Assembly (NCBI GenBank): GCA_029552985.1 | Contig: JAKPDB010000121.1 | Location: 1 to 59,090 of the forward strand | Reading direction: 5' to 3' | Source of the DNA: a bacterium | Lineage (GTDB): Bacteria > Ratteibacteria > UBA8468 > B48-G9 > DTJG01 | Length of the DNA: 59,090 bases | Shown here: positions 1,670-37,895 of the stretch, piece by piece | Numbering within the stretch: position 1 is the first letter of the stretch | How the letters are laid out: every line of letters starts with the position of its first letter | Made by a program: the position numbers and the translations under genes | The notes under the pieces: model-generated | The model's database searches: none | Told to the model about the DNA's origin: nothing | The model's input: the letters and a program-made list of their open reading frames with translations, nothing else

Positions 1670-3807
1670 AAATTGAAAAAGAAAGTTCTGGCGGAAACAA
1701 TCTATATAAGATTACCAATGGCATTATCTCCATTGAGATTCTTGAACTGGATGGACGACTTCTCCAAATCTCACACTTAAGAAAAAAATATAAATTTCTG
1801 TCTGAAAGAATTTTTACTCTCGCAGCAAGAAGTAAATTCCCTTATGGCATCACAACCTGGGTCAAAACAGGCAGAATCAGGGATGGCGCTGCTGGGGTAC
1901 TATCAGAAAATGCTATCGGTTATGATGTACCAGTATCTGAACCAGTGAAAATTGAAGAAAAATCGAACAAATTTAAAGTACTATGTGTAATTGAAAAAAA
2001 TGCGCTGAAACTTGAAAAAATTTATGAAATTGAAAAGAATGTGCCATGGTTTACCTATACTACACGCTTGATAAATCAGGGCGAAAGAAGAAATTTGCAG
2101 CTTGAACACTTTTTCGTATGGAATTCAGATCACCATAGAGAAAGTACTTGTTTTGTTGTACCCCGTGAAAATGGTCTCGACCAGATTTTCTTTCCAGCAT
2201 TTGAGGAACTTGATTGCCACGCCATAAAACCATCAGAGCAATGGGCTGCATTTCTTGATTGTGATCAAAAGTCATCTGTGATATTTACCTTTTCTGGCAT
2301 CCATTGCATCGCAAGGTATATTGCTGGTGACAATGGCCAGTGTGCTGGATACTCACCTGAAATCATACTTGAAAAAAATGCAGAGATTGTAAATACCTAT
2401 CATTTTTACATTTTTCCCAATGTGAAAAAGCAAATTGAGAAATGTAGAGAAGTAGAGCCTATCAGAAAAAATCTCATGTTCTTGTGTGCGAAAAAAGATT
2501 ATATCAGCATAACACAATCTGTAGAAGATACAATCGAAAATATGCTGTGTGTACCAGAAAAATTTGTAAGAAATCCAGGACAATTTAATTTTAAATCCGA
2601 TGTTTCAATTGAAGCAACCGGACTTGAAAAAGAAGCAGAACTTTTTATCAGACAGATTGAGTTTGAATATGGAATAAAACTGAATAAGAAATCAGAGAAA
2701 AAGAAAATCAAGTTGATTGCCCAGGAACAAAAGGATTCTCAAGCATACCGATTGCGAGTCAATCCAGAAAATATCTGTATCACAGGTACACCTGAGTCCA
2801 TTCAATATGGACTTGAAACCCTTCTTGCCCTCTGCACAAAAACTGGAAACGATGTAATTACCCCATGCTGTGAAATAGAGGACAAACCTGAAGTAAAAAT
2901 TCGCGGAATGCTTATGTTTCCGTCCGGAAAAAGATGGGATGTTCTTTTAAAAAAATTTGCAATTGGAGTATTAACACAATTGCGATTCAATGCTTTCATG
3001 ATATATTTGAGCCCGGATAGTTTTGTTCCAAGCCAGCCAATAAAAAACATTAAACCAGTCCCCACAGCGATTGAAGAAAAAGATTTGAGAAATCTTGTGA
3101 CAGAAATGCAGTCGATGCATATCAAAGTACTTGTATGCTGCAGTACAAAACATGTTCTCTGTCCACAATGTCAAAAAGAAGATGCTGAAATCATGTGCGA
3201 ATTTTTAAAAAGAATTCATGACATTGTAAAACCTGATTTCATCAACATAGGTTATGATGAAATGGGAAGATTCAATGCGGGATGTCAGTGCAGTCCAGAT
3301 ATAAAAAATCACCACGCCTTTGTTAAATCAGTATCCTACTTCCACAATTTTTTAAAAATGCTTGGTACAAGAGCAAGTATATGGTGTGACATGCTTGTCA
3401 GAAAACCCGGCGACCCATTGGGATGGCTTGATGACCCTGAATGGGCAATAGAATCATTACCGAAGGATATCATACTCAATGATTATGAGTATATGCCTGA
3501 TGTTGTTGAATATCCAAGAATTGAAAGATGGAAAAATAAGGGATTTGATGTTGTTTGTACTCCATGGGCAATGGAAGAAAATATTCTTCACTGGGTGGAA
3601 TCAGCAAAAAAATACCATGCTGACGGCATCATAGGTTCATCATGGGCAGAAGGACCTTCAGAAAAAAAACTTGGATATATTGAAGGACTGATCTGGACAG
3701 GTTTATTAAGCTGGAGAAGCACAAATGTTGACATTTACAAAAAGAGCCCGATCGTAAAAAGATTTGCAAAAAAAATTGCAGAAAGAAAATGGGAGAAATA
3801 TGAATAA
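1666..3807 (+). CDS. GH20 beta-N-acetylhexosaminidase-like protein with an N-terminal beta-sandwich extension
   Basis: GH20 domain-2 signature (AYRLRVNPENICITG...YGLETLLAL, IEDKPEVKIRGML) and catalytic-like NIGYDEMG (acidic DE pair); about 280 extra N-terminal residues. Confidence 0.75.
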   Translation: MKIEKESSGGNNLYKITNGIISIEILELDGRLLQISHLRKKYKFLSERIFTLAARSKFPYGITTWVKTGRIRDGAAGVLSENAIGYDVPVSEPVKIEEKSNKFKVLCVIEKNALKLEKIYEIEKNVPWFTYTTRLINQGERRNLQLEHFFVWNSDHHRESTCFVVPRENGLDQIFFPAFEELDCHAIKPSEQWAAFLDCDQKSSVIFTFSGIHCIARYIAGDNGQCAGYSPEIILEKNAEIVNTYHFYIFPNVKKQIEKCREVEPIRKNLMFLCAKKDYISITQSVEDTIENMLCVPEKFVRNPGQFNFKSDVSIEATGLEKEAELFIRQIEFEYGIKLNKKSEKKKIKLIAQEQKDSQAYRLRVNPENICITGTPESIQYGLETLLALCTKTGNDVITPCCEIEDKPEVKIRGMLMFPSGKRWDVLLKKFAIGVLTQLRFNAFMIYLSPDSFVPSQPIKNIKPVPTAIEEKDLRNLVTEMQSMHIKVLVCCSTKHVLCPQCQKEDAEIMCEFLKRIHDIVKPDFINIGYDEMGRFNAGCQCSPDIKNHHAFVKSVSYFHNFLKMLGTRASIWCDMLVRKPGDPLGWLDDPEWAIESLPKDIILNDYEYMPDVVEYPRIERWKNKGFDVVCTPWAMEENILHWVESAKKYHADGIIGSSWAEGPSEKKLGYIEGLIWTGLLSWRSTNVDIYKKSPIVKRFAKKIAERKWEKYE

Positions 3808-4867
3808 AATTTGTGAAATCAAACCATGTGATACCCAACGGTATGAAGTAATAAGAAAATTTCTTCCTGAAAAAATCATTGATGTTCATACTCACCTCTG
3901 GAGAAAAAGGGACTATCCTGTTCAAAAAAAACATGATCCGAGGTTTGTAACCTGGCCATCAAGAGTTGCAGAAGAAAATCCCATTGAAGACCTTATTGAA
4001 ACTTATAAAGTTCTACTTCCAGGCAAACAGGTAGTTCCTGTCATGTTTCCAAACTTACCATCAGGAAATAACCTGGACGCTATCAATAGTTATGTCAGCG
4101 ATTGTTCAAAAAAAACCGGATACCCTGCTTTGATTTTCAGCGACCCTGAGTGGGCTTCTGAAGAACTTGAAGAAAGAATTATACAAGGGAATTTTATTGG
4201 GGCTAAAAGTTATATGAGTATGCTTCCTGAAACAATACCTCCTAATAACATCAATATTTTTGATTATTTTCCAAAACATCAACTTGAAATTCATGATAAA
4301 AATGGGTGGATTGTGATGCTCCATATTCCAAAAGAAGGGAGATTGAAGGACCCGGAAAATTTAAAGAATCTCTGTGAAATTGACAGAATTTATGAAAATA
4401 TTCAGGTCATTGTTGCGCATGTTGGAAGAGCTTACTGTAATCATGATGCGGGAAATGCCTTTGAAATATTGAAGAAAACAAAAAGAATTATGTTTGATAT
4501 CAGCGCCAATACCAATGAGAATATCTTTTCCATGCTGATTGAATGTGTTGGACCTGACAGAATTCTTTTTGGTTCAGACATGCCCATTACAAGAATGAGG
4601 ATGAGAAGAATTGAAAAAGATGGAATTTATGTAAATCTTGTGCCAAAAGGACTTTATGGAGACGTGTCCCGGGATAAACATATGGCTGAAATTGATGGAA
4701 TTGAAGCAGAAAATCTTACATTTTTTCTGTATGAAGAAATCGATGCTTTCAGAAAAGCATGCGAAAGGCAAAAGCTCAAAGATGATGACATTGAAAAAAT
4801 TTTTTATAAAAATGCTCTGAACATGATTGAAAAAGCAAAAAAGTGGAGGAAGTATGTTGATCATTAA
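3800..4867 (+). CDS. Amidohydrolase family protein (Amidohydro_2-like)
   Basis: IIDVHTH metal motif, IVAHVGR, RILFGSDMP; start moved to ATG 3800, overlapping the upstream stop. Confidence 0.85.
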   Translation: MNKICEIKPCDTQRYEVIRKFLPEKIIDVHTHLWRKRDYPVQKKHDPRFVTWPSRVAEENPIEDLIETYKVLLPGKQVVPVMFPNLPSGNNLDAINSYVSDCSKKTGYPALIFSDPEWASEELEERIIQGNFIGAKSYMSMLPETIPPNNINIFDYFPKHQLEIHDKNGWIVMLHIPKEGRLKDPENLKNLCEIDRIYENIQVIVAHVGRAYCNHDAGNAFEILKKTKRIMFDISANTNENIFSMLIECVGPDRILFGSDMPITRMRMRRIEKDGIYVNLVPKGLYGDVSRDKHMAEIDGIEAENLTFFLYEEIDAFRKACERQKLKDDDIEKIFYKNALNMIEKAKKWRKYVDH

Positions 4868-9861: not shown

Positions 9862-11145
9862 TTACACAAATTGATGGACAACTTCTGAAGCAATTTTTGC
9901 CCATTCAGTCAATCTTGATGGCTGGTGCCTGATGGTGCTGATATCCTTCATTATTACCTCAACGATACAACCATTTTCTTTCATAACTGTTAGATTTTTC
10001 TGCAATTCATTTCTTACAAACTCGTTATCCCACTGTTCACACGCAAGAATTGCTGGATTTGGTTTGTAGGAAATCACATATCTATTTTTTATTTTTTCTG
10101 CTGCAATTTTCACATCCGCACGAGGACTGATCGAAATTTTTCGCAAATTTCCAATTTCCTCAAGGATATGGATTTTGTTATGAAGTGGTTCACAACATCC
10201 GTAATAAGAAAGCCCAAATTTTTCAAGCCATTTTTTCTCATAATTCAATGCAAACTCCTTATGCATGGCAGGTGAAACTTCAGAGAAAATCTGGCTTGTC
10301 GCGAAACCCCACTGCTCTGTTGATGAAATCCCAAGAGCGGAAAACGGCAATTTTGGAAGATCAGATGTATAACCAAATCCGCCGGAACCAATCCTGAAAT
10401 TTCCATTATTTGGCGAAAGAAGTTTCAGTTTTTCAAACTGCTCCAACCTGTAAAGGCTTGCTTCAAGAAATCTTTCAGTAAGAGCATGCGCAAAGGAAGG
10501 TCTTGTCGCCAAAGACAGCAGTGTTTCCTCAACACCAACCAGCATCACCAGCCAATCCCATGGAGCAAACCATATCGCTCCTATGCCATATAATTCAACT
10601 GTTAAATATTTGCTAAAAATTTCTTCGAGTATCTTCTTCCTTTTTTTTGTTTCATCCCAATCAACAGAAATTTCAGGCAATTTTATTTTCTTAATATCAT
10701 TTTCATCTTTTATCTGTGGAACAAAGTGCCTTGAAACAATTCCTGATGATTGAGAACCAGCATATTCTGCTTCAGGTGATATTCCGAAACCTGTATCATA
10801 AATTACCACTGGAAGCCTGTAAACAGGTTCAACAATCATATCTACCCTGGCATTGTGCCACATGTAAAGAAGTGTCTTCAGTTCAAACTCAATTCTTCTG
10901 GCAACCTCATTTTCGCATTGAATGTTAAGTAAACCACAGGACTGAATTTCATGCCATGGAACTTCATTAATCCAGACCACGGGTCTACCTGGTTTCAAGT
11001 CATTGGTTCTTTCCCATTGTGAAATAATTGTAGAATGAACAGGCAGATGCGCGATTTCTGAAATTTCTGCGGCAAGATTTCTAAGAATTACTATATCCTG
11101 GCTTTTTATGTCCTCAAACTTTGAATTGTTTTTTTGCAAACTCAT
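9862..11145 (-). CDS. Uroporphyrinogen decarboxylase (URO-D)/MtaA-like TIM-barrel protein of unknown function
   Basis: SEVSPAMHKEFAL...YYGCCEPLH, ISISPRAD, ISYKPNP motifs typical of URO-D-like families; start uncertain (ATG 11145 overlaps the ackA 3' end). Confidence 0.65.
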   Translation of the reverse strand: MSLQKNNSKFEDIKSQDIVILRNLAAEISEIAHLPVHSTIISQWERTNDLKPGRPVVWINEVPWHEIQSCGLLNIQCENEVARRIEFELKTLLYMWHNARVDMIVEPVYRLPVVIYDTGFGISPEAEYAGSQSSGIVSRHFVPQIKDENDIKKIKLPEISVDWDETKKRKKILEEIFSKYLTVELYGIGAIWFAPWDWLVMLVGVEETLLSLATRPSFAHALTERFLEASLYRLEQFEKLKLLSPNNGNFRIGSGGFGYTSDLPKLPFSALGISSTEQWGFATSQIFSEVSPAMHKEFALNYEKKWLEKFGLSYYGCCEPLHNKIHILEEIGNLRKISISPRADVKIAAEKIKNRYVISYKPNPAILACEQWDNEFVRNELQKNLTVMKENGCIVEVIMKDISTIRHQPSRLTEWAKIASEVVHQFV

Positions 11146-12321
11146 ATGTATCAATGGCTATCGCAAGTTCTTCATTTGTGGGTATTACAAAAACTTTTAT
11201 TTTTGAATCAGGGGTACTAATCTCAGATTCTTTTCCCCTGATATTGTGATTTTTTTGTTTATCGACGACTATACCATATTGCTCAAGACCTTCAAGAGAT
11301 TTTTCCCTGACAATCGGCTGGTTTTCTCCAATCCCTGCAGTAAAAACTATTCCATCAACATTACCAAGAACCGCAAGATAAGCGCCAATGTATTTTTTCC
11401 CCTGTATGAGAAAATTTCTATGGCAAGTTGTGCCATTTTATTACCTTTTGAAGCGCTTTCAACAATACTTCTGAAATCGTTTGAAACACCTGAAATACCG
11501 ATAAGTCCACTTTCTTTGTTTAAAATTTTGTTAACCTCTGATGGGTTCATTTTGAGATTTTCAATAAAGTACAGAATTACACCCGGATCAATATCTCCGC
11601 TTCTTGTTCCCATCACAAGTCCTTCAAGTGGAGTAAATCCCATGCTTGTATCAATAGACCTTCCATTCTTTACAGCAGTGATACTGCATCCATTACCAAG
11701 ATGACAGGTAATAAGGTTCACATCGTATTTATGTTTACCCAGAATCTGAGCAAATCTTCTCGCAACATACCTGTGAGATGTGCCATGAAAACCATATCTT
11801 CTAATCCGGTATTTTTCATAAAAATCGTAAGGCAATGCATAAAGATAAGCAACAGGAGGCAGTGTCGTATGAAAAGCAGTATCAAAACAGGCAACCTGAA
11901 CGCTTTCAGGGAAATACTTTTCTGCAGCAACAATGCCCTGAAAATTTGGGGGATTGTGAAGTGGAGCAAGAGGAATAAATTCTTTAATCTTGTTGGTAAC
12001 CTTTTCATCTATGAGCATGCTGCCAGTAAATTCCTCGCCCCCATGCACTACCCTGTGACCAACTCCTTTGATTTCATTGAGATTTTTTACTGCACCGCAG
12101 GAAGGGTCTACAAGAAGTTTCGCAATAATTTCCAGGCCATGATTGTGGTCAGGAATTTCTTGAGTGTTGTTAATTGAAAAACCGTCTTTTGAATATTTCA
12201 CAATGGCATCAGGAGCGCCAATTTTTTCAATCAGTCCTAAGGCGACCAGCGTATTTTCAGGCATGCTGAACAGTTTGAACTTAATTGAGGAACTGCCACA
12301 ATTAATCACAAGGATTTTCAT
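11114..12321 (-). pseudogene. ackA: Acetate kinase with a single-base frameshift near 11393-11402 (pseudogene, sequencing error or recoded gene)
   Basis: ILVINCGSSSIK, GHRVVHGG, APLHNP, FDTAFH, YGFHGTSH, HLGNGCS, GTRSGD in the 12321 frame; the conserved C-terminus (KKYIGAY...FTAGIGEN...IPTNEELAIA, stop at 11114) continues in the -1 frame. Confidence 0.9.
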
Positions 12322-12560
12322 TTCAGGTATTTGTTGATAAAATCGACTGCCTTACCGACTGTTTTGACCTGAAGCGCTGCATCTTCTTCCATCTCTATTC
12401 CAAATTCTTCCTCAAATGCTGCAACAAGTTCTAAACTTTGAACACTTTCAGCACCCAGGTCTTCCACAAATCTGCTTTCAGGTGTAATAATGCTTTCGTC
12501 CACGCCAAGAATTCTGCTTACAACTTCTTTTACCCTTTTTTCAATTTCCTGTCTTTCCAT
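12318..12560 (-). CDS. acpP: Acyl carrier protein
   Basis: Acidic 80-aa protein with DLGAESVQSLELVAAFEEEFGIEM; the phosphopantetheine Ser lies in a GAES rather than GADS context. Confidence 0.85.
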   Translation of the reverse strand: MERQEIEKRVKEVVSRILGVDESIITPESRFVEDLGAESVQSLELVAAFEEEFGIEMEEDAALQVKTVGKAVDFINKYLK

Positions 12561-12571
12561 TGTTGCCCCTT

Positions 12572-13822
12572 TTATGTTTTTGCCTTTGAACTTTTCGAAA
12601 TATATGCCTTTCTCATTTCTGCTGTGATTTCATAAACTTTTCTGATGACATGTTCTTCTTCTGGTGTTAGAATTCTTTTTCTTCTTTCCATTGCGGCACG
12701 AGCTGTTTTCAACATCATTTCAAGTCCAAAACCCTTCATGAATTTATTGTTTACGTACCAGACAAAAGAAGGAAAAAACTTTGGAAGTATTCCACCAGCA
12801 GTGATATTACACATTACCCCAGCAGATGTTCCTGTATTGAACAGTGTACCAATGCTTGTTTTCGTATGGTCTCCAATAAACGAACCTACCTTTAAGTCTC
12901 CTGTATCAATTGGTTTACCGTTGACATATACTGTCACTGTGGAATAATCGTTTTTCAAATCACTGTTTGTGGTCAGTGCTCCGAGATTAACAAATTCTCC
13001 GATATATGCATGGCCCACAAAACCATCATGATACTTATTTGAATATCCCTGGATGATGCTTTCTTCAAGTTCACCGCCAATTCTGCACACAGGACCGATA
13101 CTGTTACCTTCCCTGATACTGGCACCAGGCATGATATGGGTATCCTCTCCTATATAGCAGGGTCCCTCAATCCTTGAAAATGGAAAAATCTTTGCCTTTT
13201 TATCAATAAATACAGGTCCAGAACTTGTATCCAGCACGACAAATGGATGAATTTCAGCGCCTTCTGCAATAAAGATATCATCAGGACCCTTGACCAATGC
13301 CTGCGGAGAAAAAGTACCTTCAATACCCCTTTTACCACTGGAGAGAAAATCTTTCCTTAACATTTCAGGATTCTCATGAATAAAATTCCATGGAAAACGC
13401 ATCAGTTTCGCTTTAACATTTGCTGAAGGTAATGTTTTCACAAAATCAAGAATTTCAGAAAGATTTTTACCCGCAATCTTTGAAGCATTCTCCTTTTTTA
13501 TAAAAGCATAGACAACTTCATTATCGCATACATAAACTGCCTGTTTGTCTGTATAGAATTCTGACTCAGCAAGGACTCTTCCATCAACAATTAACAGGTC
13601 ATCATTCAATTCGCCGCTCTGATTAACTGGATATTGGTATTTTTTTCTTACCAGATCTACAAGATAATCTCTCACAAAAAATACAACATCCTCAGTTTTT
13701 GCTTTCATCAAAATTCTTTCCAGAAGTGAATACATACCACATCTCAATTCAAAAACAGGCCTGATGTAACTTAATGGCGTAAGATTTATCCAGTCATCAT
13801 TTTCATAAATCAACAATTTCAT
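12572..13822 (-). CDS. GlmU-like protein: atypical nucleotidyltransferase-like N-domain plus left-handed beta-helix acetyltransferase domain
   Basis: LTPLSYIRPVFELRCG N-terminus without GxGxR; hexapeptide repeats; NKYHDGFVGHAYIGEFVNLGALTTNSDLKND; GSFIGDHTK. Confidence 0.75.
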   Translation of the reverse strand: MKLLIYENDDWINLTPLSYIRPVFELRCGMYSLLERILMKAKTEDVVFFVRDYLVDLVRKKYQYPVNQSGELNDDLLIVDGRVLAESEFYTDKQAVYVCDNEVVYAFIKKENASKIAGKNLSEILDFVKTLPSANVKAKLMRFPWNFIHENPEMLRKDFLSSGKRGIEGTFSPQALVKGPDDIFIAEGAEIHPFVVLDTSSGPVFIDKKAKIFPFSRIEGPCYIGEDTHIMPGASIREGNSIGPVCRIGGELEESIIQGYSNKYHDGFVGHAYIGEFVNLGALTTNSDLKNDYSTVTVYVNGKPIDTGDLKVGSFIGDHTKTSIGTLFNTGTSAGVMCNITAGGILPKFFPSFVWYVNNKFMKGFGLEMMLKTARAAMERRKRILTPEEEHVIRKVYEITAEMRKAYISKSSKAKT

Positions 13823-13834
13823 TGAAACTCCCTG

Positions 13835-14806
13835 TTAAGAAAGCAGGCAAGTAATGGCTGCTACAGCAACAATATCTTCTGGTTTTGCTCCTCTGGAAAG
13901 GTCGCTCACTGGCTTTGCAAAGCCCTGAAGTACAGGTCCATACGCCTTTGCGCCAGCAAGATATTGAGTGATTTTATAACCAATATTTCCTGCGTCAAGG
14001 TCAGGAAATATTAATACATTTGCCCTTCCTGCAACCTCGCCAATTTCTTTTAATTTTTTCCTTGCGACAGTTTCTGAAACAGCTGTATCAACCTGAAATT
14101 CGCCATCATATGCAGTTTCAGGGTCTTTGTCTTTTGCAATCTCTACTGCTTTTACAACCTTTTCAACATCAGGGTGAGATGCACTGCCCTTTGAAGAAAA
14201 TGATAGAAAAGCAACAAGTGGCTTTTCGTTCATCAATTTTTTGAAACTGCTGGCCGTAGCAATTCCTATATCAGCAAGGGTTTCGCTATCCGGAGAAATA
14301 TTGACTGCGCAGTCAGCGAAAAAGTAGATTTTACTGTCAGGCATTTCCATGATGAAAAAACTCGATGCCTTTGAAATATTTTTCTGATAACCAGCTGTTA
14401 ATGCTGCTGCCTGAATCACATCGGCAGTCGTGCTTGCTGCTCCAGCAACCATTGCATCTACCCTTCCTGACGCCACCATCATACCTCCAAAAATCAATGG
14501 CTTTTTTACAAGACGCAATGCAACCTTTTCAGAAACATTTGGTCTTTGTTTCTGATAAAGGAAGGCAAATTCATTTATAAGTTCAGTATCATTGATGTCC
14601 ACAATGTTAATCCCAGAACAGGATTTCCCACATTTTTCAAAAGCAGCCATAATTTCTTCTGGGATCCCACATAGCACTGGTTTTGCAACTGACTTTTCCA
14701 CCAAAAGGACAGCGGCTTCAATAATACGAGGATCATTGCTCTCTGGCAAAATCACACTTTTATCAAGAGAACTTGTCCGTTGAATTAATGTGTTCAGAAT
14801 ACCCAT
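13835..14806 (-). CDS. pta: Phosphate acetyltransferase
   Basis: ILPESNDPR, FLSFSSKGSA, DGEFQVDTAV, LIFPDLDAGNIGYK, GPVLQGFAKPVSDLSRG. Confidence 0.93.
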   Translation of the reverse strand: MGILNTLIQRTSSLDKSVILPESNDPRIIEAAVLLVEKSVAKPVLCGIPEEIMAAFEKCGKSCSGINIVDINDTELINEFAFLYQKQRPNVSEKVALRLVKKPLIFGGMMVASGRVDAMVAGAASTTADVIQAAALTAGYQKNISKASSFFIMEMPDSKIYFFADCAVNISPDSETLADIGIATASSFKKLMNEKPLVAFLSFSSKGSASHPDVEKVVKAVEIAKDKDPETAYDGEFQVDTAVSETVARKKLKEIGEVAGRANVLIFPDLDAGNIGYKITQYLAGAKAYGPVLQGFAKPVSDLSRGAKPEDIVAVAAITCLLS

Positions 14807-14809
14807 CGT

Positions 14810-15598
14810 TTAGAAAATTTCTTTACCGAGTTTTTTCTCTGCCTCTTCGACAAATTTATAATAATTAATCCTTTTGAGTTCAGAAGCAGCTTCTTCATCA
14901 AGAAAATAACTAACCTTTGGATGCATCTGGAGCGCTGATGCAGAAATCATGCTTGTTAAAGGTCCCTCTATTGCTTGGGCAATGGCTTTTGCCTTATTCT
15001 TCCCATTTGCGATAAGGATAATCTCCTTTGCTTCAAGAATAGTCCCAACACCCATACTCAAAGCAAATCGTGGAACTTGGTTTTTATCTTCAAAAAATCT
15101 TGAATTATCTTCAATCGTCTGAGCATCAAGAGCCACAAGACGTGTTCTCGACGCCAGAGATGAACCTGGCTCATTAAAGGCGATATGGCCATCACTGCCT
15201 ATTCCAAGCACCTGTAAGTCAATCCCGCCTGCCTCCTTTATCTTCTGCTCGTAATGTCGACAGAATTCTTCCCAATCCTGAGCCGTACCATCAGGAACCA
15301 TGGTGTTTGCTTTGTCAATGTCTATGTGGTCAAAAAGATTGGTATTCATAAAATACCTGTAGCTTTGGGGGTGGTCTCCTTTCAATCCATAGTATTCATC
15401 AAGATTAAAGGTCTTCACTTTTTTGAAACTGACTACACCTTTCTTATTCAAATTGATTAATTCTCTATACAACCCGAGCGGACTTGAACCTGTAGCAAGA
15501 CCGAGCACAAATTCTGGCTTTTTTTCAATTCTTGATGTGACGAGTTTTGCTGCTTCAACACTGATTTCTTCATATGTTTTCCTGATTATCACCCTCAT
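14810..15598 (-). CDS. nagB: Glucosamine-6-phosphate deaminase
   Basis: LGLATGSSP, FNLDEY, GGIDLQVLGIGSDGHIAFNEP, SMGVGTI; start ATG 15598 after AGGAGG. Confidence 0.95.
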   Translation of the reverse strand: MRVIIRKTYEEISVEAAKLVTSRIEKKPEFVLGLATGSSPLGLYRELINLNKKGVVSFKKVKTFNLDEYYGLKGDHPQSYRYFMNTNLFDHIDIDKANTMVPDGTAQDWEEFCRHYEQKIKEAGGIDLQVLGIGSDGHIAFNEPGSSLASRTRLVALDAQTIEDNSRFFEDKNQVPRFALSMGVGTILEAKEIILIANGKNKAKAIAQAIEGPLTSMISASALQMHPKVSYFLDEEAASELKRINYYKFVEEAEKKLGKEIF

Positions 15599-16925
15599 TT
15601 TCGTCCTCCTCAGAAATATGAGATTCACCCAAATGTTTCAAGCCCAGTGAAATTTTTTTGGCCTCAGGGTCTATTTCAAGTATGAGAACATCAATTTTCT
15701 GCCCCTTTCTCAAAACTTCAGATGGATGTTTAATCTGGATATCAGAAATGTTTGAGATGTGAAGAAGGCCATCAATACCCTTTTCTATTTCCACAAATGC
15801 GCCAAAATCAGTGATGTGGTAAACCTTGCCCTTTACCACGCTTCCAACTGGATACTTCTTTACTATTTCTGGCCAAGGATTCTGTTCCATTTGTCTAAGG
15901 CTGAAAGATATTTTTTGCTCATCTTTTTTAATGTCAATCACCTTCAGTTTCACAACATCACCCATAGCGACTACATCAGAGGGATGTCTTACCCTGCCTG
16001 TCCATGAAAATTCAGAAATATGAAGCAAGCCCTCTATTCCATCCTCAAGTTTTATAAATGCACCATAATCCGTGATATTCACAACCTTGCCATCAACAAT
16101 AGAACCCACAGGATACTTTGTTTCCACATCGTCCCATGGATTTTTTGTCTTTTGTTTCAATCCAAAAGAAACAACCTGTTTTTCCATATTTACATCAAGA
16201 ACAACTACTTCAATTTCTTCTCCAACTGAAATCATCTGGGATGGATGTGTGATTCTTCCCCATGCCATATCATTCAGATGCAAAAGACCCACAACTCCGT
16301 TGTCAGTTTCAATAAATGCACCATAATCAACGAGATTTTTTACCTTGCCCTTTATAATTGTTCCTTTTTCAAGTGTTTGCAGGAACTGTCGTTTTTTTTC
16401 CTCTTTTTCTTCTTCAAGATATTTTCTTCTTGAGACAACAACATTTTTCCTCTGTTTGTCAATCTTGATAATTTTGAATAAACTCTGCATATTGATGAAT
16501 TGAGACGGATTTGTCACTGGCTTGATGTCTGTTTGCGAACCAGGGAGAAACGCAAGAATTCCTATGTCAACCTTAAAACCACCCTTCACCCTTTGAAGAA
16601 TTGTTCCTGTAATTGGCTTATCCTCTTCATAATGCTTTTCAATTTTATCCCAGTTCAGCATAATATCTGCTTTTTCCTTTGAAAGCAGTATCAGGCCATT
16701 AGGGTCTGGATCCAGGGATTCAACAATCAGGTCAACCTGAGTTCCTGGTTTTATTTTATCCTGCTCACTTTTGAACTCTTCTCGAAGAACATAGCCCTCG
16801 GTTTTATAACCAAAGTCAACTATTACCTCTTTATCAACCCTGACCACAGTACCTTTAATGAGAGAACCCGGCTTAAAAGACAGTAATTTCTCTTCCAGAA
16901 TTTTTCCAACATCCATGCCCTCCAT
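15570..16925 (-). CDS. rpsA: 30S ribosomal protein S1 (five S1 repeats)
   Basis: Repeated DYGAF...GLLHISE motifs; five S1 domains counted; located downstream of ispH. Confidence 0.93.
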   Translation of the reverse strand: MEGMDVGKILEEKLLSFKPGSLIKGTVVRVDKEVIVDFGYKTEGYVLREEFKSEQDKIKPGTQVDLIVESLDPDPNGLILLSKEKADIMLNWDKIEKHYEEDKPITGTILQRVKGGFKVDIGILAFLPGSQTDIKPVTNPSQFINMQSLFKIIKIDKQRKNVVVSRRKYLEEEKEEKKRQFLQTLEKGTIIKGKVKNLVDYGAFIETDNGVVGLLHLNDMAWGRITHPSQMISVGEEIEVVVLDVNMEKQVVSFGLKQKTKNPWDDVETKYPVGSIVDGKVVNITDYGAFIKLEDGIEGLLHISEFSWTGRVRHPSDVVAMGDVVKLKVIDIKKDEQKISFSLRQMEQNPWPEIVKKYPVGSVVKGKVYHITDFGAFVEIEKGIDGLLHISNISDIQIKHPSEVLRKGQKIDVLILEIDPEAKKISLGLKHLGESHISEEDENEGDNQENI

Positions 16926-16931
16926 TTTATG

Positions 16932-17801
16932 TTACCTCCTGTATTTTTTTTGCGCTGGATGGTCACTCAAAACATCAATCATCTCCCTGATACACCTGAC
17001 ATCCGTAGACGCACCAGAGATTATACCAATTTTTTCGAAATTTGCAAGATTCAAATTTTTTACCTCTGATGAAGATTCAATCAAAAATGTATTTTTATTA
17101 ACTTTTCTACCGATATGAACAAGTTTTCTCGTATTTGAACTTTTTCTACCTCCCACAACAATCAGGGCATCCACCTTCTGCGCTAGTTCAAGCGCTTCTG
17201 ACTGTCTCTTTATACTCACAGGACAGATTGTATTAAAAATTGTAAGTTTTTCAGCAGGAAGTGTGTTGATAATTTTTTTGATGGCAGTCCTGTAAAGGTC
17301 AAGAGAAATAGTCGTCTGCGCAATAATTGCCCATTTTTTCAGGTGTATTGAACTGGTGTCAAATTTCTGATATGGCCTTATGACCATGGAGTTGTCTCCT
17401 GCGATTTTTTTCATCGCCTTTATTTCAGGATGTTCTGGGTCTCCGATTAGAAAAATAAAATATCGCCGCGAAGATAAATCTTTGACAAGATTCTGAACCT
17501 TCTTTACAAATGGACATGTGGCATCATAAATTTTTGTCGCGTATTGCTTCAGTTTCTGAAGAACATCTGGTGGAAGCCCATGAGACCTTATTATAAACGG
17601 ATAGTTTCTGGCTTCAGATATATTCTCTATCACCCTCAATCCCTTCTCCTTTAATTCTGACATCACAATGGGATTATGAACAAGGTCTCCAAACGTAGCA
17701 AGGCATCCATATTCATTCAAAACTTTTTTTGCAGTTGTGACTGCTTTTGTGACGCCAAAACAAAAACCAATCGATCTGCCGACTATGATTTTTCTTGCCA
17801 T
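16932..17801 (-). CDS. ispH: 4-hydroxy-3-methylbut-2-enyl diphosphate reductase
   Basis: GFCFGV, LVHN, RSHG, DATCPFV, HPE, QTT, NTIC, SSNT. Confidence 0.93.
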   Translation of the reverse strand: MARKIIVGRSIGFCFGVTKAVTTAKKVLNEYGCLATFGDLVHNPIVMSELKEKGLRVIENISEARNYPFIIRSHGLPPDVLQKLKQYATKIYDATCPFVKKVQNLVKDLSSRRYFIFLIGDPEHPEIKAMKKIAGDNSMVIRPYQKFDTSSIHLKKWAIIAQTTISLDLYRTAIKKIINTLPAEKLTIFNTICPVSIKRQSEALELAQKVDALIVVGGRKSSNTRKLVHIGRKVNKNTFLIESSSEVKNLNLANFEKIGIISGASTDVRCIREMIDVLSDHPAQKKYRR

Positions 17802-18424
17802 TTTGAAAGCTCCACGATTTTTTTCATAACATCCTGCGCCACTTCTTCATATGTCTGCTGCCGGTTATAAACCACCTGTTCTCCCACCCTGATAACAATT
17901 TTTCCTGGCCTGATAAAATTCCTTCCAGGTGGCATGGCTCTGAAAGAACCTTTTATATAAACAGGTACCACAGGCACTTCTGCACGAAGTACAATAAAAC
18001 CAATTCCTGGTCTGGCAGGTAGAAACTGACCTGTTCGTGAACGAGTCCCTTCAGGAAAAATCAGCAGTCCCTTTCCCTTTTTTATCACATTCAATGCCAT
18101 TCTGACGTCGGATTTCCCCATGCTGGACTTTGAAAGTGGAATCGCTCCAAGTCGGGTAATCAACATGCCAAAAAGACCAACCAGTTGCTCCTGCTTGGTG
18201 AAATATGCAATAGGCTTCGGACAAATATATCCCAGAAGTGGGGGGTCAAGAAAACTTGTATGGTTGGCGGCAATTACAAACTTTCCTGAACGCGGAATAT
18301 TTTCTTTTCCATAAACCTCTAAATGAAAAAAAAGCTTGAAAATGAAAAATCCAAGAATTTTTGCAGCCATCCACAATAACCTATTTGATTCTCCTGCTGG
18401 ATATTCTGCTGATAAGCTCCTCAT
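17783..18424 (-). CDS. plsC: 1-acyl-sn-glycerol-3-phosphate acyltransferase
   Basis: ANHTSFLDP (NHxxxxD), IFPEGTRS, GIGFI; start ATG 18424 after GAGGGG. Confidence 0.88.
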   Translation of the reverse strand: MRSLSAEYPAGESNRLLWMAAKILGFFIFKLFFHLEVYGKENIPRSGKFVIAANHTSFLDPPLLGYICPKPIAYFTKQEQLVGLFGMLITRLGAIPLSKSSMGKSDVRMALNVIKKGKGLLIFPEGTRSRTGQFLPARPGIGFIVLRAEVPVVPVYIKGSFRAMPPGRNFIRPGKIVIRVGEQVVYNRQQTYEEVAQDVMKKIVELSKWQEKS

Positions 18425-18794
18425 ATCTTTTGTCCCCTCTAAGACCAGCAAGGTCAGGGTCTTCTTTCAAATGTCTGAAGTCGCTATATCCAAGTATTAT
18501 GGCAATATTCAAGTACATTAGTGCCTCTTCCTTTTTCCCCATCAAAGCACAATCACAGGCAATATTATAATAATGAATAGGTTCAAGCGGTTGCAAAAAA
18601 GCAAGCCGCTTGTCAATGGCAAGACCTGCTTCAAAATCTCCTGATTTTGTACATAAATCGCCCAAAACCTCAAGTGCCTCAATATAATCAGGATTTTCTT
18701 CAACAATCTCCTTGAGAAAGAGATATCGTTTACTTTTTAATGTTTTTCTGTGCAAAATTTTTTTCCGTGCTGATTGCAATTTTTTATTTTTCAA
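18381..18794 (-). CDS. TPR-repeat protein
   Basis: NPDYIEALEVLGDL...GLAIDKRL...YYNIACDCALMGKKEEAL...DPDLAGLR helical-repeat pattern. Confidence 0.75.
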   Translation of the reverse strand: MKNKKLQSARKKILHRKTLKSKRYLFLKEIVEENPDYIEALEVLGDLCTKSGDFEAGLAIDKRLAFLQPLEPIHYYNIACDCALMGKKEEALMYLNIAIILGYSDFRHLKEDPDLAGLRGDKRYEELISRISSRRIK

Positions 18795-19047
18795 TGATAT
18801 CCTCCAGTAATGTGATTGCTATTACTTTTTCTTTTGCCACAATTGTTTTCTTACGATTGACAACAAGGCCATCCTTTTTGATCCTCACAAGGTATTCATG
18901 TTTTGTCATATTGACTTCGGAAACGTCAAAAGCATCAGCCTCTGAAAGATAATAATAATGACTGTCTTCGCCTTCCAGTACTCCGATGTAAATCCAGTTT
19001 GTTGAAGTATCCAGAACCACCCTTTTTGAAATAAAAGTATCCTTCAT
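18784..19047 (-). CDS. Small conserved hypothetical protein, possible Sm/LSm-like fold
   Basis: 87 aa; VVLDT..WIYIGVL...YYLSEADAFD beta-strand pattern; overlaps both neighbours. Confidence 0.55.
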   Translation of the reverse strand: MKDTFISKRVVLDTSTNWIYIGVLEGEDSHYYYLSEADAFDVSEVNMTKHEYLVRIKKDGLVVNRKKTIVAKEKVIAITLLEDIIEK

Positions 19048-19490
19048 TTTTCCCGACCAATGATTATTGTCACAGGTCCATCGTTGTGTATTTCCACAAG
19101 CATCTGCCGACCAAATTCACCTGACACAATGTTGCCAGAATAAAGATTTATACATGTTTCCACAAATTTATTGAAAAAGGTTTCTGCCTCTTGTGGATTC
19201 ATTGCCTGGAGAAAATCAGGTCTATTACCTCCCTCGGTGTTCGCATAAAGAGTAAATTGCGAAATCACCATCAAACCACCGGAAATATCAAGCAAACTCA
19301 GATTCATTCTATCCTGTGCATCTGCAAAAATTCTTAATTTTAATATCTTTCGCACCATGGGTTCTATCAATGTCTCATGATCATTCTTTCCAAAACCAAC
19401 AAAAACGACAAGACCCTTATCAATGCTACCTTTCAAAACACCATCAATTCTCAGACACGCGCGAACAACTCTCTGAACAACAAGTTTCAT
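19044..19490 (-). CDS. dtd: D-aminoacyl-tRNA deacylase
   Basis: MKLVVQRV, ISQFTL, GNRPDF, EIHNDGPVT. Confidence 0.95.
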   Translation of the reverse strand: MKLVVQRVVRACLRIDGVLKGSIDKGLVVFVGFGKNDHETLIEPMVRKILKLRIFADAQDRMNLSLLDISGGLMVISQFTLYANTEGGNRPDFLQAMNPQEAETFFNKFVETCINLYSGNIVSGEFGRQMLVEIHNDGPVTIIIGREK

Positions 19491-37145: not shown

Positions 37146-37895
37146 ATGAATAATCACATATCAGCAATAATCCTTGCAGCTGGCTACGGCAAACGACTCG
37201 GCGGAGAAAATCAAAAAACATTGACTCAGATACTCGGTAAACCCATTCTTGTTTACTTAATGTCTACAGTTAAACAGTGCAACCCGAAAAAAATTGTCGT
37301 AGTTGTTGGATTTCAAAAAGAAAAGGTAATGGAACAATTGAAAGGAGAACCTGTAATATTTGTTGAGCAAAAACAATTACTCGGTACAGGTCATGCAGTA
37401 ATGACAGCCGAAAATGTCCTTTCAGATTTCTGTGGAAATGTGATTGTTTTGTGTGGAGATGTACCTTTTCTTTCTTTTGAAACGATCAATAAACTAAAAG
37501 AGACGCATGAAAATACTCATGCTGATTGTACAATTCTTACTGCCATTGTTGACTCGCCATATGGATATGGCAGGATCGTAAGGGATGTGTCAAACAATAT
37601 AACAAAGATTGTTGAAGACATCAATGCTTCAGATGAAGAAAAGCAAATTAAAGAAATTAATGCCGGAGTTTATATCTTTAAAAATAAAATCCTCTTTGAA
37701 TCCCTGAAGAAAATAAAACCAAACCCTGTAAAAAATGAGTACTATCTTACTGATGTGATTGAAATTTTTATATCAGAAGGAAGAAAAGTTTCTACATGGA
37801 CAACACCATCTCCTGAAGAAACTATAGGAATTAACACTCCTGAAGATCTGGAGAAAGCCCTGCAATACATTTCAAGTTTAAGGAGAAAACAATGA
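37146..37895 (+). CDS. GlmU N-terminal (uridyltransferase) domain only
   Basis: ILAAGYGKRL, QLLGTGHAV, CGDVP, GYGRIVRD, EINAGVY, EYYLTD; ends at GINTPEDL with no beta-helix acetyltransferase domain. Confidence 0.85.
   Translation: MNNHISAIILAAGYGKRLGGENQKTLTQILGKPILVYLMSTVKQCNPKKIVVVVGFQKEKVMEQLKGEPVIFVEQKQLLGTGHAVMTAENVLSDFCGNVIVLCGDVPFLSFETINKLKETHENTHADCTILTAIVDSPYGYGRIVRDVSNNITKIVEDINASDEEKQIKEINAGVYIFKNKILFESLKKIKPNPVKNEYYLTDVIEIFISEGRKVSTWTTPSPEETIGINTPEDLEKALQYISSLRRKQ

Follow-up and report, generated by a model that had tools for sequence, protein, structure and literature searches.

An operon on the minus strand of contig JAKPDB010000121.1 (assembly GCA_029552985.1), from a bacterium of the Ratteibacteria, embeds a gene for an acyl carrier protein (ACP), here termed ACP2, among genes for a phosphotransacetylase (Pta), a GlmU-like beta-helix protein and an acetate kinase (AckA). 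The window, i.e. the whole stretch of 59,090 nucleotides that was analysed, was compared with 65 genomes of the same phylum and with ACP2 loci from other phyla. ACP2 genes recur beside acetate-activating enzymes, pta and acp2 were lost together in two lineages, and Ptas linked to ACP2 carry a non-basic residue in place of an arginine of the coenzyme A (CoA) site. To judge from its sequence and genomic context, ACP2 is a second, dedicated ACP and not the fatty-acid carrier. We consider the chances about even that this operon supplies a private acetyl carrier, with acetate being converted to acetyl-phosphate and then to acetyl-ACP2 for the acetylation of glucosamine-1-phosphate (GlcN-1-P). The genes on which this proposal bears are as follows.

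14810-15628, minus strand: nagB, glucosamine-6-phosphate deaminase (TIGR00502, 339 bits against a cut-off of 237)
13835-14806, minus strand: pta (TIGR00651, 319 bits against 311; PF01515, 336 bits)
12572-13822, minus strand: GlmU-like gene (TIGR03991, 368 bits against 225, full length)
12318-12560, minus strand: acp2, encoding ACP2 of 80 amino acids (TIGR00517, 81.5 bits against 70.45; PF00550, 54.5 against 20.8)
11114-12321, minus strand: ackA (TIGR00016, 422 bits against 293, residues 1-324)
37146-37895, plus strand: canonical glmU, N-terminal domain only, 249 amino acids (TIGR01173, 239 bits, model positions 2-236 only)

Exactly two ACP genes were found in the genome (an assembly of 2.2 Mb in 178 contigs, estimated to be 86% complete). 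The other gene, acpP, sits between fabG and fabF in a canonical coaD...plsX-fabH-fabD-fabG-acpP-fabF cluster on contig C137 (NF002151, 124 bits), and its product scores far above ACP2 on AcpP models. The two proteins are 45% identical and are separated by a long branch in a tree. ACP2 fails as the housekeeping fatty-acid AcpP, a role filled by the C137 gene. A preliminary description of this DNA had proposed a check for plsX, fabH and another acpP, all of which are present on C137; as the genome holds two ACPs, the scenario that it had named as adverse, in which ACP2 is the only ACP with a fab set elsewhere, does not apply. The GAES motif that it reported lies within the attachment motif LGAES (Ser39) of ACP2, whose helix II signature is ESVQSLELVAAFEEEF, and Ser39 was invariant in 35 ACP2 orthologues. 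An AcpS-like gene is located on contig C12, and a holo-ACP synthase gene adjoins the block in several lineages. The ATGA overlap of the acp2 stop with the ackA start was likewise present as reported, and ackA appears from this overlap to be translationally coupled to acp2.

Linkage of ACP2 to its neighbours was examined in other phyla. A protein search returned ACP2-type sequences of ~70% identity from Thermoguttaceae, other Planctomycetes and Sedimentisphaerales, and a scan of species-representative genomes yielded at least 482 ACP2 relatives, of which the best 80 loci were used for neighbour counts. Query patterns were derived from ACP2 alone and neighbours played no part in the choice of loci; the neighbours were then surveyed by tblastn with a protein panel. 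These loci were labelled as Planctomycetota (several orders), Omnitrophota, Ratteibacteria, TA06, Gemmatimonadota, Latescibacterota, Ignavibacteria and Bacteroidota, and ACP2 orthologues outside the phylum were 56-96% identical, with record labels of at least eight phyla. An ADP-forming acetyl-CoA-synthetase-like gene was found within 500 bp of ACP2 in 52 of the 80 loci and Pta or AckA at this distance in 15. Within 6 kb, a GlmU-like or DUF4954 beta-helix gene was present in 48 loci, nagB in 41 and a LeuA/NifV-like (HMGL-like) gene in 19. When 4 kb or more of flanking sequence was required on each side, 36 loci remained; of these, 33 had an activating enzyme (i.e. Pta/AckA or the ADP-forming synthetase) within 3 kb, 25 had a beta-helix gene and 23 had both. 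The linkage of ACP2 is far beyond chance. The preliminary description had listed confinement to this strain among the findings that would speak against its idea; the order of the four genes was kept throughout the taxonomic order, and the association recurred in other phyla.

Gene order differed between these groups. Typically, Ignavibacteria and Bacteroidota exhibited acp2-synthetase-nagB-DUF4954 and Planctomycetes exhibited synthetase-acp2-nagB-glmU-like-LeuA-like, and one Gemmatimonadaceae-labelled and one Latescibacterota-labelled locus exhibited nagB-acp2-pta-ackA. In all phyla, nagB accompanied the GlmU-like gene more constantly than any other gene did. The ACP2-linked synthetase is ~725 amino acids in length, with CoA_binding, Succ_CoA_lig and ATP-grasp_5 domains. 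Both acetate/thioester systems adjoin ACP2, so that two non-homologous systems occupy the same place, and Pta plus AckA and the ADP-forming ligase are interchangeable beside the same carrier. In some loci (L080, L104, L123 and L102), ACP2 has two paralogues: one adjoins the synthetase, and the other is flanked by the GlmU-like and LeuA-like genes. A short ACP tree grouped the ACP2 paralogues roughly by neighbour and far from AcpP.

Three further observations were made on these loci and on the genome of the window. The LeuA/NifV-like protein is 465 amino acids long in L104 (4430-5824) and is encoded in the same place in L080, L123, L102, L051, L060 and L077, with the order in loci with two ACPs being nagB-glmU-like-ACP-HMGL-synthetase-ACP. 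Fragments of ADP-forming acetyl-CoA-synthetase-like genes, 37-46% identical to the ACP2-linked gene of Thermoguttaceae, occur on contigs C146, C120 and C162 of the window's genome (C146 and C120 being ~1.2-1.3 kb each), and this genome may thus have a second acetate/acetyl-thioester route whose context has been lost. A cluster of ~300-amino-acid open reading frames (ORFs) without a family (e.g. L124, 7647-8543) was recurrent in 12 loci; because its tblastn matches elsewhere fall antisense to nagB, the cluster probably reflects shadow ORFs on GC-rich nagB genes instead of a genuine gene.

Within the phylum, ACP2 orthologues of 63-94% identity were detected in 49 of the 65 genomes and in all five families. 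The arrangement pta-glmU-like-acp2-ackA was constant across the three families of the taxonomic order to which the window belongs. Families f4 and f5 are more distant, and there the genes of the block are reshuffled yet linked, as WecB-pta-glmU-like-acp2-GlmM-like without ackA in f4 and as acp2-pta-ackA-glmU-like in f5. ACP2 was never seen in the phylum without a neighbouring Pta and GlmU-like gene, barring two contig fragments of ~2 kb (L040 and L023) in which one or both partners are missing.

Natural losses provided further evidence of association. Three genomes of genus g14 (family f4) carry WecB-pta-glmU-like-acp2-GlmM-like; their relative G057 (91% complete) has WecB-glmU-like-GlmM-like, both flanks of the GlmU-like gene (i.e. 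pta and acp2) being gone, and retains a separate, ordinary pta-ackA pair but has no ACP2. Genome G056 contains two Ptas, one in the WecB operon and one in an ordinary pta-ackA pair elsewhere. Genome G013 (93% complete) has kept the rpsA-nagB-glmU-like end of the run and has no pta, ackA or ACP2 genome-wide. Thus pta and acp2 were lost together in two lineages (G057 and G013) though they are not contiguous. Genome G027 (96% complete) has kept the run through nagB-pta-ackA, with the GlmU-like gene and acp2 cleanly missing between pta and ackA, and in G023 a deletion took acp2 together with the first 213 codons of ackA. An apparent Pta-GlmU-like fusion in L092 (a 773-amino-acid frame) was traced to a stretch of N in the record and rejected as an artefact.

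The operon Pta has retained the catalytic motif SDLSRG, which was invariant in 22 sequences and corresponds to Ser309/Arg310 of M. thermophila Pta. Alignment of the window's Pta with solved enzymes placed Lys86 in the Arg87 column and Gln132 in the Arg133 column of the M. thermophila enzyme, such that a CoA site-2 arginine is missing and is replaced by Gln132. Arg87 and Arg133 form CoA-binding site 2, where acetyl-CoA was bound in crystals of the P. gingivalis Pta, and their mutation mainly raises the Michaelis constant (Km; Yoshida et al. 2019, PMC6461089). The Arg133 column was Arg in five solved Ptas. It was Gln in every phylum Pta located in the nagB/glmU-like/acp2 context (~30 genomes) and in the Pta of a Sedimentisphaerales cluster, Ser in the Gemmatimonadaceae- and Latescibacterota-labelled loci and Thr in a metagenomic pta-ackA-glmU-like-acp2 locus; a non-basic residue was thus present in every ACP2-linked Pta examined. 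Six f4 Ptas paired only with ackA had Lys/Arg followed by Pro, as in canonical enzymes, and the Pta of G027, which has lost ACP2, had Lys. On this residue pattern, the ACP2-linked Ptas appear to be a marked subfamily that lost the CoA-site arginine. The G027 gene (L133, i.e. G027:C2; pta at 3126-4088) has Lys where all its relatives have Gln, which may be a reversion towards use of CoA.

The residue was also surveyed more widely. The nearest 150 representatives of 50%-identity clusters comprised 104 with Arg/Lys and 46 with non-basic residues, the latter crowded at the top of the list. A blind test of the rule that a non-basic residue denotes a carrier-linked Pta was made on cluster representatives, most of which are on contigs of 2-5 kb. 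Three non-basic types (Thr, Met and Ala) were positive, being linked to a carrier or GlmU-like gene; a Leu type was ambiguous, with a holo-ACP synthase gene immediately upstream and a gene for a PP-binding protein at a distance of 2.3 kb; a Glu type, on a contig of only 2.6 kb, had no carrier link; one more non-basic representative was uninformative; and the one informative Arg-type control had no such link. This outcome agrees with the rule but is thin. In L138 (134-7179), a pta with Leu in this column lies in a run of genes for an AMP-binding enzyme, an isochorismatase, a PP-binding protein, a peptidase S15, a holo-ACP synthase, Pta and AckA, and is another carrier-protein context for a non-basic Pta.

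Prediction of an ACP-Pta complex had been suggested in the preliminary description and was carried out with Pta and ACP2 each supplied as its own alignment, together with three controls. The complex scored 0.69, 0.67 and 0.69 as compared to 0.02 for the best of the three controls; among reference pairs, 58 of 80 solved complexes attained the score mark, as did 2 of 110 mismatched pairs, a calibration that is only rough here given the use of own alignments. The runs agreed in 100% of contacts and the partner pLDDT was 89, giving a confident interface centred on Ser39. Predicted contacts on Pta (residues 88, 90-92, 94-95, 98-99, 105, 131-132 and 135-136) correspond to the CoA site-2 region and include Gln132, whilst those on ACP2 were residues 16-19, 38-40 (with Ser39), 42-44, 47-48 and 50-51 (helix II). 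The model therefore predicts that Ser39 and helix II of ACP2 are placed on CoA site 2. Several of the ACP2 contacts are positions that separate ACP2 from AcpP (i.e. Glu38 for Asp, Ser42-Leu43 for Thr-Val and Ala47-Ala48 for Met-Asp). We know of no solved Pta-ACP complex, and it therefore seems unlikely that the prediction merely reproduces a known structure.

The GlmU-like protein consists of a divergent NTP_transf_4 N-domain and a left-handed beta-helix acetyltransferase domain, and belongs to TIGR03991 ('alternative bacterial GlmU'), which is a hypothetical equivalog only. Its N-terminus, IYENDDWINLTPL, is without the GxGTR signature of nucleotidyltransferases, and this signature was not found in 43 members of the TIGR03991 family from several phyla. 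Residues 201-346 of the beta-helix align with ST0452 of S. tokodaii (2GGO/5Z09; E 2e-17), whilst the N-domain does not, and the protein reaches 32 bits on the canonical GlmU model TIGR01173 as compared to a cut-off of 367. The canonical glmU of the window encodes the uridylyltransferase domain only (with LAAGYGKRL), in its usual ispE-spoVG-glmU-prs context, in which it overlaps prs by 4 nt and is coupled to it. Such N-domain-only proteins were present in 59 of the 65 phylum genomes and a full-length copy in none. Because the GlmU of the phylum is only the uridylyltransferase half and the GlmU-like family is without GxGTR, the two sequences look complementary for the synthesis of UDP-N-acetylglucosamine (UDP-GlcNAc), with the N-domain-only GlmU as the likely partner that completes it. 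A comparison designed around phyletic complementarity, in which a full-length GlmU would occur where the GlmU-like gene is missing, did not discriminate since all 59 matches were N-domain only. Two of the apparent absences in this comparison (G026 and G039) are contig breaks directly after pta or the GlmU-like gene. No DUF4954 gene was found in five genomes without a GlmU-like gene that were tried. Based on its beta-helix and on its gene lying between WecB and a GlmM-like mutase in family f4, the GlmU-like protein is proposed to be the consumer of acetyl-ACP2, acting as a GlcN-1-P N-acetyltransferase. The GlmU of E. coli has a Km of 20 uM for acetyl-ACP as compared to 400 uM for acetyl-CoA (Whaley et al. 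2021, PMC8666670); this preference for acetyl-ACP provides a precedent for a beta-helix GlcN-1-P acetyltransferase that draws on an acetylated carrier. A more divergent paralogue of the GlmU-like gene, of 39% identity, was observed in L130 (4723-6000; G061:C20), where it stands among Wood-Ljungdahl genes (i.e. RACo, a CooC-like ATPase and formate-tetrahydrofolate ligase) and no ACP adjoins it.

A pathway can be proposed in which AckA would make acetyl-phosphate from acetate and ATP or, in some lineages, a second and ordinary Pta would make it from acetyl-CoA. The operon Pta would then use acetyl-phosphate to acetylate holo-ACP2 on its phosphopantetheine thiol, the arginine lost from this enzyme being the one that would hold the nucleotide end of CoA. 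In most other phyla, the ADP-forming acetyl-CoA-synthetase-like enzyme would replace these two steps in one. Acetyl-ACP2 would donate to the beta-helix domain of the GlmU-like protein for N-acetylation of GlcN-1-P, and the stand-alone N-domain of canonical GlmU would add UMP to yield UDP-GlcNAc. Gene content, linkage, co-loss, the residue pattern and a predicted interface are what the analysis shows; the chemistry of each step, the direction in which flux runs and the sugar that accepts the acetyl group are all inferred. The preliminary description had raised an acetyl-phosphate/acetyl-ACP shuttle that feeds the adjacent acetyltransferase; as a proposal, this idea is supported by the linkage across phyla with interchangeable activating enzymes, the co-losses, the lost arginine, the predicted interface and the GlmU precedent. 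A wider proposal, plausible but in our view rather less than probable, is that an acetyl-ACP economy operates in parallel in many phyla outside the Proteobacteria (Planctomycetota, Omnitrophota/Ratteibacteria, Gemmatimonadota, Ignavibacteria, Bacteroidota and others), with ACP-specific subfamilies of Pta and of ADP-forming synthetases charging a private carrier directly from acetate. Amino sugars of the cell envelope would then be N-acetylated physiologically from protein-bound acetyl and not from acetyl-CoA, and a LeuA-like condensing enzyme would perhaps draw on the same donor.

Several findings count against a private acetyl carrier. The ackA gene is frameshifted in this assembly, and the AckA and Pta of the operon are the only ones of the genome; the Gln-type Pta and AckA, being sole copies, may be a housekeeping, acetate-forming pair that uses CoA. 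Mutation of Arg133 in studied Ptas raises Km and does not abolish activity (PMC6461089). GlmU-like genes occur without ACP2 in G013, G057, G061 and G023, and there is therefore no strict dependence on ACP2; Pta-AckA can also exist without ACP2, as the natural deletions in the phylum demonstrate. In about one third of the well-flanked ACP2 loci, mostly of Pirellulales, the synthetase and ACP2 stand alone as a pair and a beta-helix gene is missing from the surrounding 6 kb; the consumer may differ there. Many of the loci are kin, with Planctomycetota dominant, and the counts therefore overstate independence. The complex score is a measure of model confidence and not a measurement, and the blind test of the residue rule was mixed and thin.

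The alternative that survives best, although unlikely, is that Pta or the synthetase charges ACP2 with acetyl and that the GlmU-like protein is no GlcN-1-P acetyltransferase, the module making or modifying another acylated amino sugar or metabolite. TIGR03991 has only the status of a hypothetical equivalog and its N-domain is without the nucleotidyltransferase signature, DUF4954 stands in place of the GlmU-like protein in Ignavibacteria, Bacteroidota and others, UDP-GlcNAc synthesis has no step for the LeuA/NifV-like partner, and some genomes (G027 and G015) are without a GlmU-like gene yet must make UDP-GlcNAc. Set against these points, no other GlmU acetyltransferase domain is recognisable in the phylum, the gene lies between WecB and the GlmM-like mutase in f4, and the beta-helix aligns best with ST0452, an archaeal enzyme of the GlmU type.

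A reversed flux is distinctly unlikely. Another enzyme, for example the LeuA/NifV-like protein or an amino-sugar-handling beta-helix enzyme, would make acetyl-ACP2, from which Pta would form acetyl-phosphate, with ATP being gained through AckA or the ADP-forming synthetase as a means of energy conservation. These are the usual ATP-yielding, acetate-forming enzymes of fermenters, and the Pta-AckA pair is the only one of this genome; NagB is normally catabolic, with glmS also present in the genome, and a LeuA/NifV-like gene is beside an ACP2 paralogue in 19 of 80 loci. However, formation of a thioester from an N-acetyl amide is strongly uphill by general chemistry, the module contains no NagA-like deacetylase, and the f4 operon (WecB-pta-glmU-like-acp2-GlmM) is plainly biosynthetic, with a Pta that has no neighbouring AckA.

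It is improbable that ACP2 is instead a regulatory or structural partner of Pta and the ADP-forming synthetase that reports, for example, the state of acetyl-phosphate or CoA. ACP binds many non-lipid proteins in E. coli, and the tightest and most general link of ACP2 is to the activating enzyme and not to any consumer. The predicted interface moreover covers CoA site 2, which is a secondary site of lower affinity in studied Ptas (PMC6461089). A purely regulatory role fits poorly with an attachment serine that is invariant in every aligned orthologue and lies within the predicted interface, or with the holo-ACP synthase gene that adjoins the block in several lineages, whilst in G027 the GlmU-like gene and acp2 were lost together, which hints that ACP2 is also tied to a consumer.

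It is very improbable that ACP2 is merely an additional ACP of the ordinary type that serves lipid, lipid A or polyketide chemistry (e.g. the upstream plsC) and owes its position to inherited gene order without functional meaning: plsC is in the same transcription unit in this clade and extra ACPs for lipid A acylation are known from other bacteria, but the plsC linkage is confined to the Ratteibacteria/Omnitrophota-labelled clade, the partners of ACP2 are kept through rearrangements and across phyla with non-homologous activating enzymes, and no fab, lpx or PKS gene is recurrent beside ACP2. The suggestions of the preliminary description that concerned lipids (a role for plsC, priming of fatty-acid synthesis, or coupling of glucosamine catabolism to lipid synthesis) were its least supported part. 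They are unsupported because the partners outside the clade are NagB, GlmU-like/DUF4954 and LeuA/NifV-like proteins and not lipid genes, and the genome has its own FabH, PlsX and AcpP.

The module is a carrier-protein-dependent variant of known chemistry (Pta-AckA, PlsX-like exchange, and GlmU with acetyl-ACP) and not a wholly new system. A close parallel is E. coli GlmU with MadA/MadB, where a beta-helix GlcN-1-P acetyltransferase is fed by an acyl carrier protein and synthesis of an envelope precursor is tied to the acetyl-ACP pool (PMC8666670). E. coli uses the general AcpP and obtains acetyl-ACP through decarboxylation of malonyl-ACP by MadA/MadB (PMC8666670), whereas the operon has an ACP paralogue of its own, acetate would be the source via the acetyl-phosphate of Pta or an ADP-forming ligase, and the acetyltransferase is of the TIGR03991 family, which most resembles the archaeal type, and is not joined to the uridylyltransferase. 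PlsX with FakA/FakB similarly exchanges acyl groups between phosphate and the pantetheine thiol of ACP downstream of an acyl-phosphate kinase. PlsX (PF02504) handles long chains on AcpP, in contrast to the operon enzyme, which is a true Pta (PF01515) whose acyl group is presumably acetyl; this Pta is not a member of PF02504/TIGR00182, the PlsX of the genome is encoded on C137, and the likeness is one of proposed chemistry only.

Canonical Pta-AckA systems (M. thermophila, P. gingivalis and B. subtilis; 1QZT/2AF3, 6IOW and 1TD9) share with the operon the protein families, the catalytic Ser-Arg, the pairing of genes and acetyl-phosphate. They differ in that ACP2-linked Ptas have Gln/Ser/Thr at Arg133 and are interleaved with an ACP and a GlmU-like gene, and in that the ACP2-linked Pta of f4 coexists with an ordinary Lys/Arg-type Pta-AckA pair. 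CitC (acetate:SH-ACP ligase) resembles the proposed module in function only, through ATP-dependent acetylation from acetate of the thiol of a dedicated carrier, CitD; the latter is unrelated and has a prosthetic group derived from dephospho-CoA, and no citrate-lyase genes are present here. ST0452 of Sulfurisphaera (Sulfolobus) tokodaii (2GGO, 5Z09) is the closest solved relative of the beta-helix and has the same two-domain layout, but unlike the window's protein it has an active nucleotidyltransferase domain and uses acetyl-CoA. To our knowledge, archaea have no ACP. Literature searches found no paper on an ACP gene set within pta/ackA, or on one that has an ADP-forming synthetase and a GlmU-like gene as partners, in agreement with the statement of the preliminary description that no system of this layout was known.

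If the proposed route is correct, the function of GlmU would be split over two proteins and the operon Pta would be the first known acetyl-phosphate:ACP acetyltransferase. Carrier-bound acetyl would then be a general, independently evolved solution across many poorly studied phyla, and Pta and the ADP-forming acyl-CoA synthetases, two classic enzyme families, would gain a new class of substrate. The annotation of thousands of genes as "acyl carrier protein", "pta" or "GlmU-like" would be corrected, and the Arg133 column would serve as a simple marker of two kinds of Pta in metabolic reconstructions of uncultivated fermenters.

The core genes belong to a longer minus-strand run, from 19490 down to 11114, in which intergenic gaps/overlaps are ≤12 nt throughout. 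The remaining genes of this run and the ORF that follows it are listed below; the named genes were each identified by ORF and family match.

19044-19490, minus strand: dtd
18784-19047, minus strand: ORF of 87 amino acids, no recognised family
18381-18794, minus strand: TPR protein
17783-18451, minus strand: plsC-like acyltransferase
16932-17801, minus strand: ispH
15570-16925, minus strand: rpsA
9862-11154, minus strand: ORF of 430 amino acids directly after ackA, no Pfam/NCBIfam family

The tight run from dtd to ackA with acp between pta and ackA, as given in the preliminary description, was confirmed by ORFs and family matches. Its gene order stood, but ackA is split over two frames: the loss of 1 nt near 11399 (11390-11405) ends the ORF after 324 amino acids, and the C-terminal 96 amino acids continue in another frame to 11114. 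The missing base is the T of AGGGTGAAAAAA in relatives, the window reading AGGGGAAAAAA. A conserved recoding site was ruled out, as ackA is in one frame in 20 of 20 relatives checked and the window is without one T; either the assembly is in error at this base, or this strain has lost its sole acetate kinase.

The label 'Sm-like' that had been given to the 87-amino-acid ORF (18784-19047) was not borne out, no Pfam or NCBIfam match being found for it, although the ORF is conserved in relatives with 45-56% identity in G013 and G023. The 430-amino-acid ORF (9862-11154) likewise matched no family in Pfam or NCBIfam, and occupies the same position after ackA within the window's genus, with 53-66% identity over the part compared.

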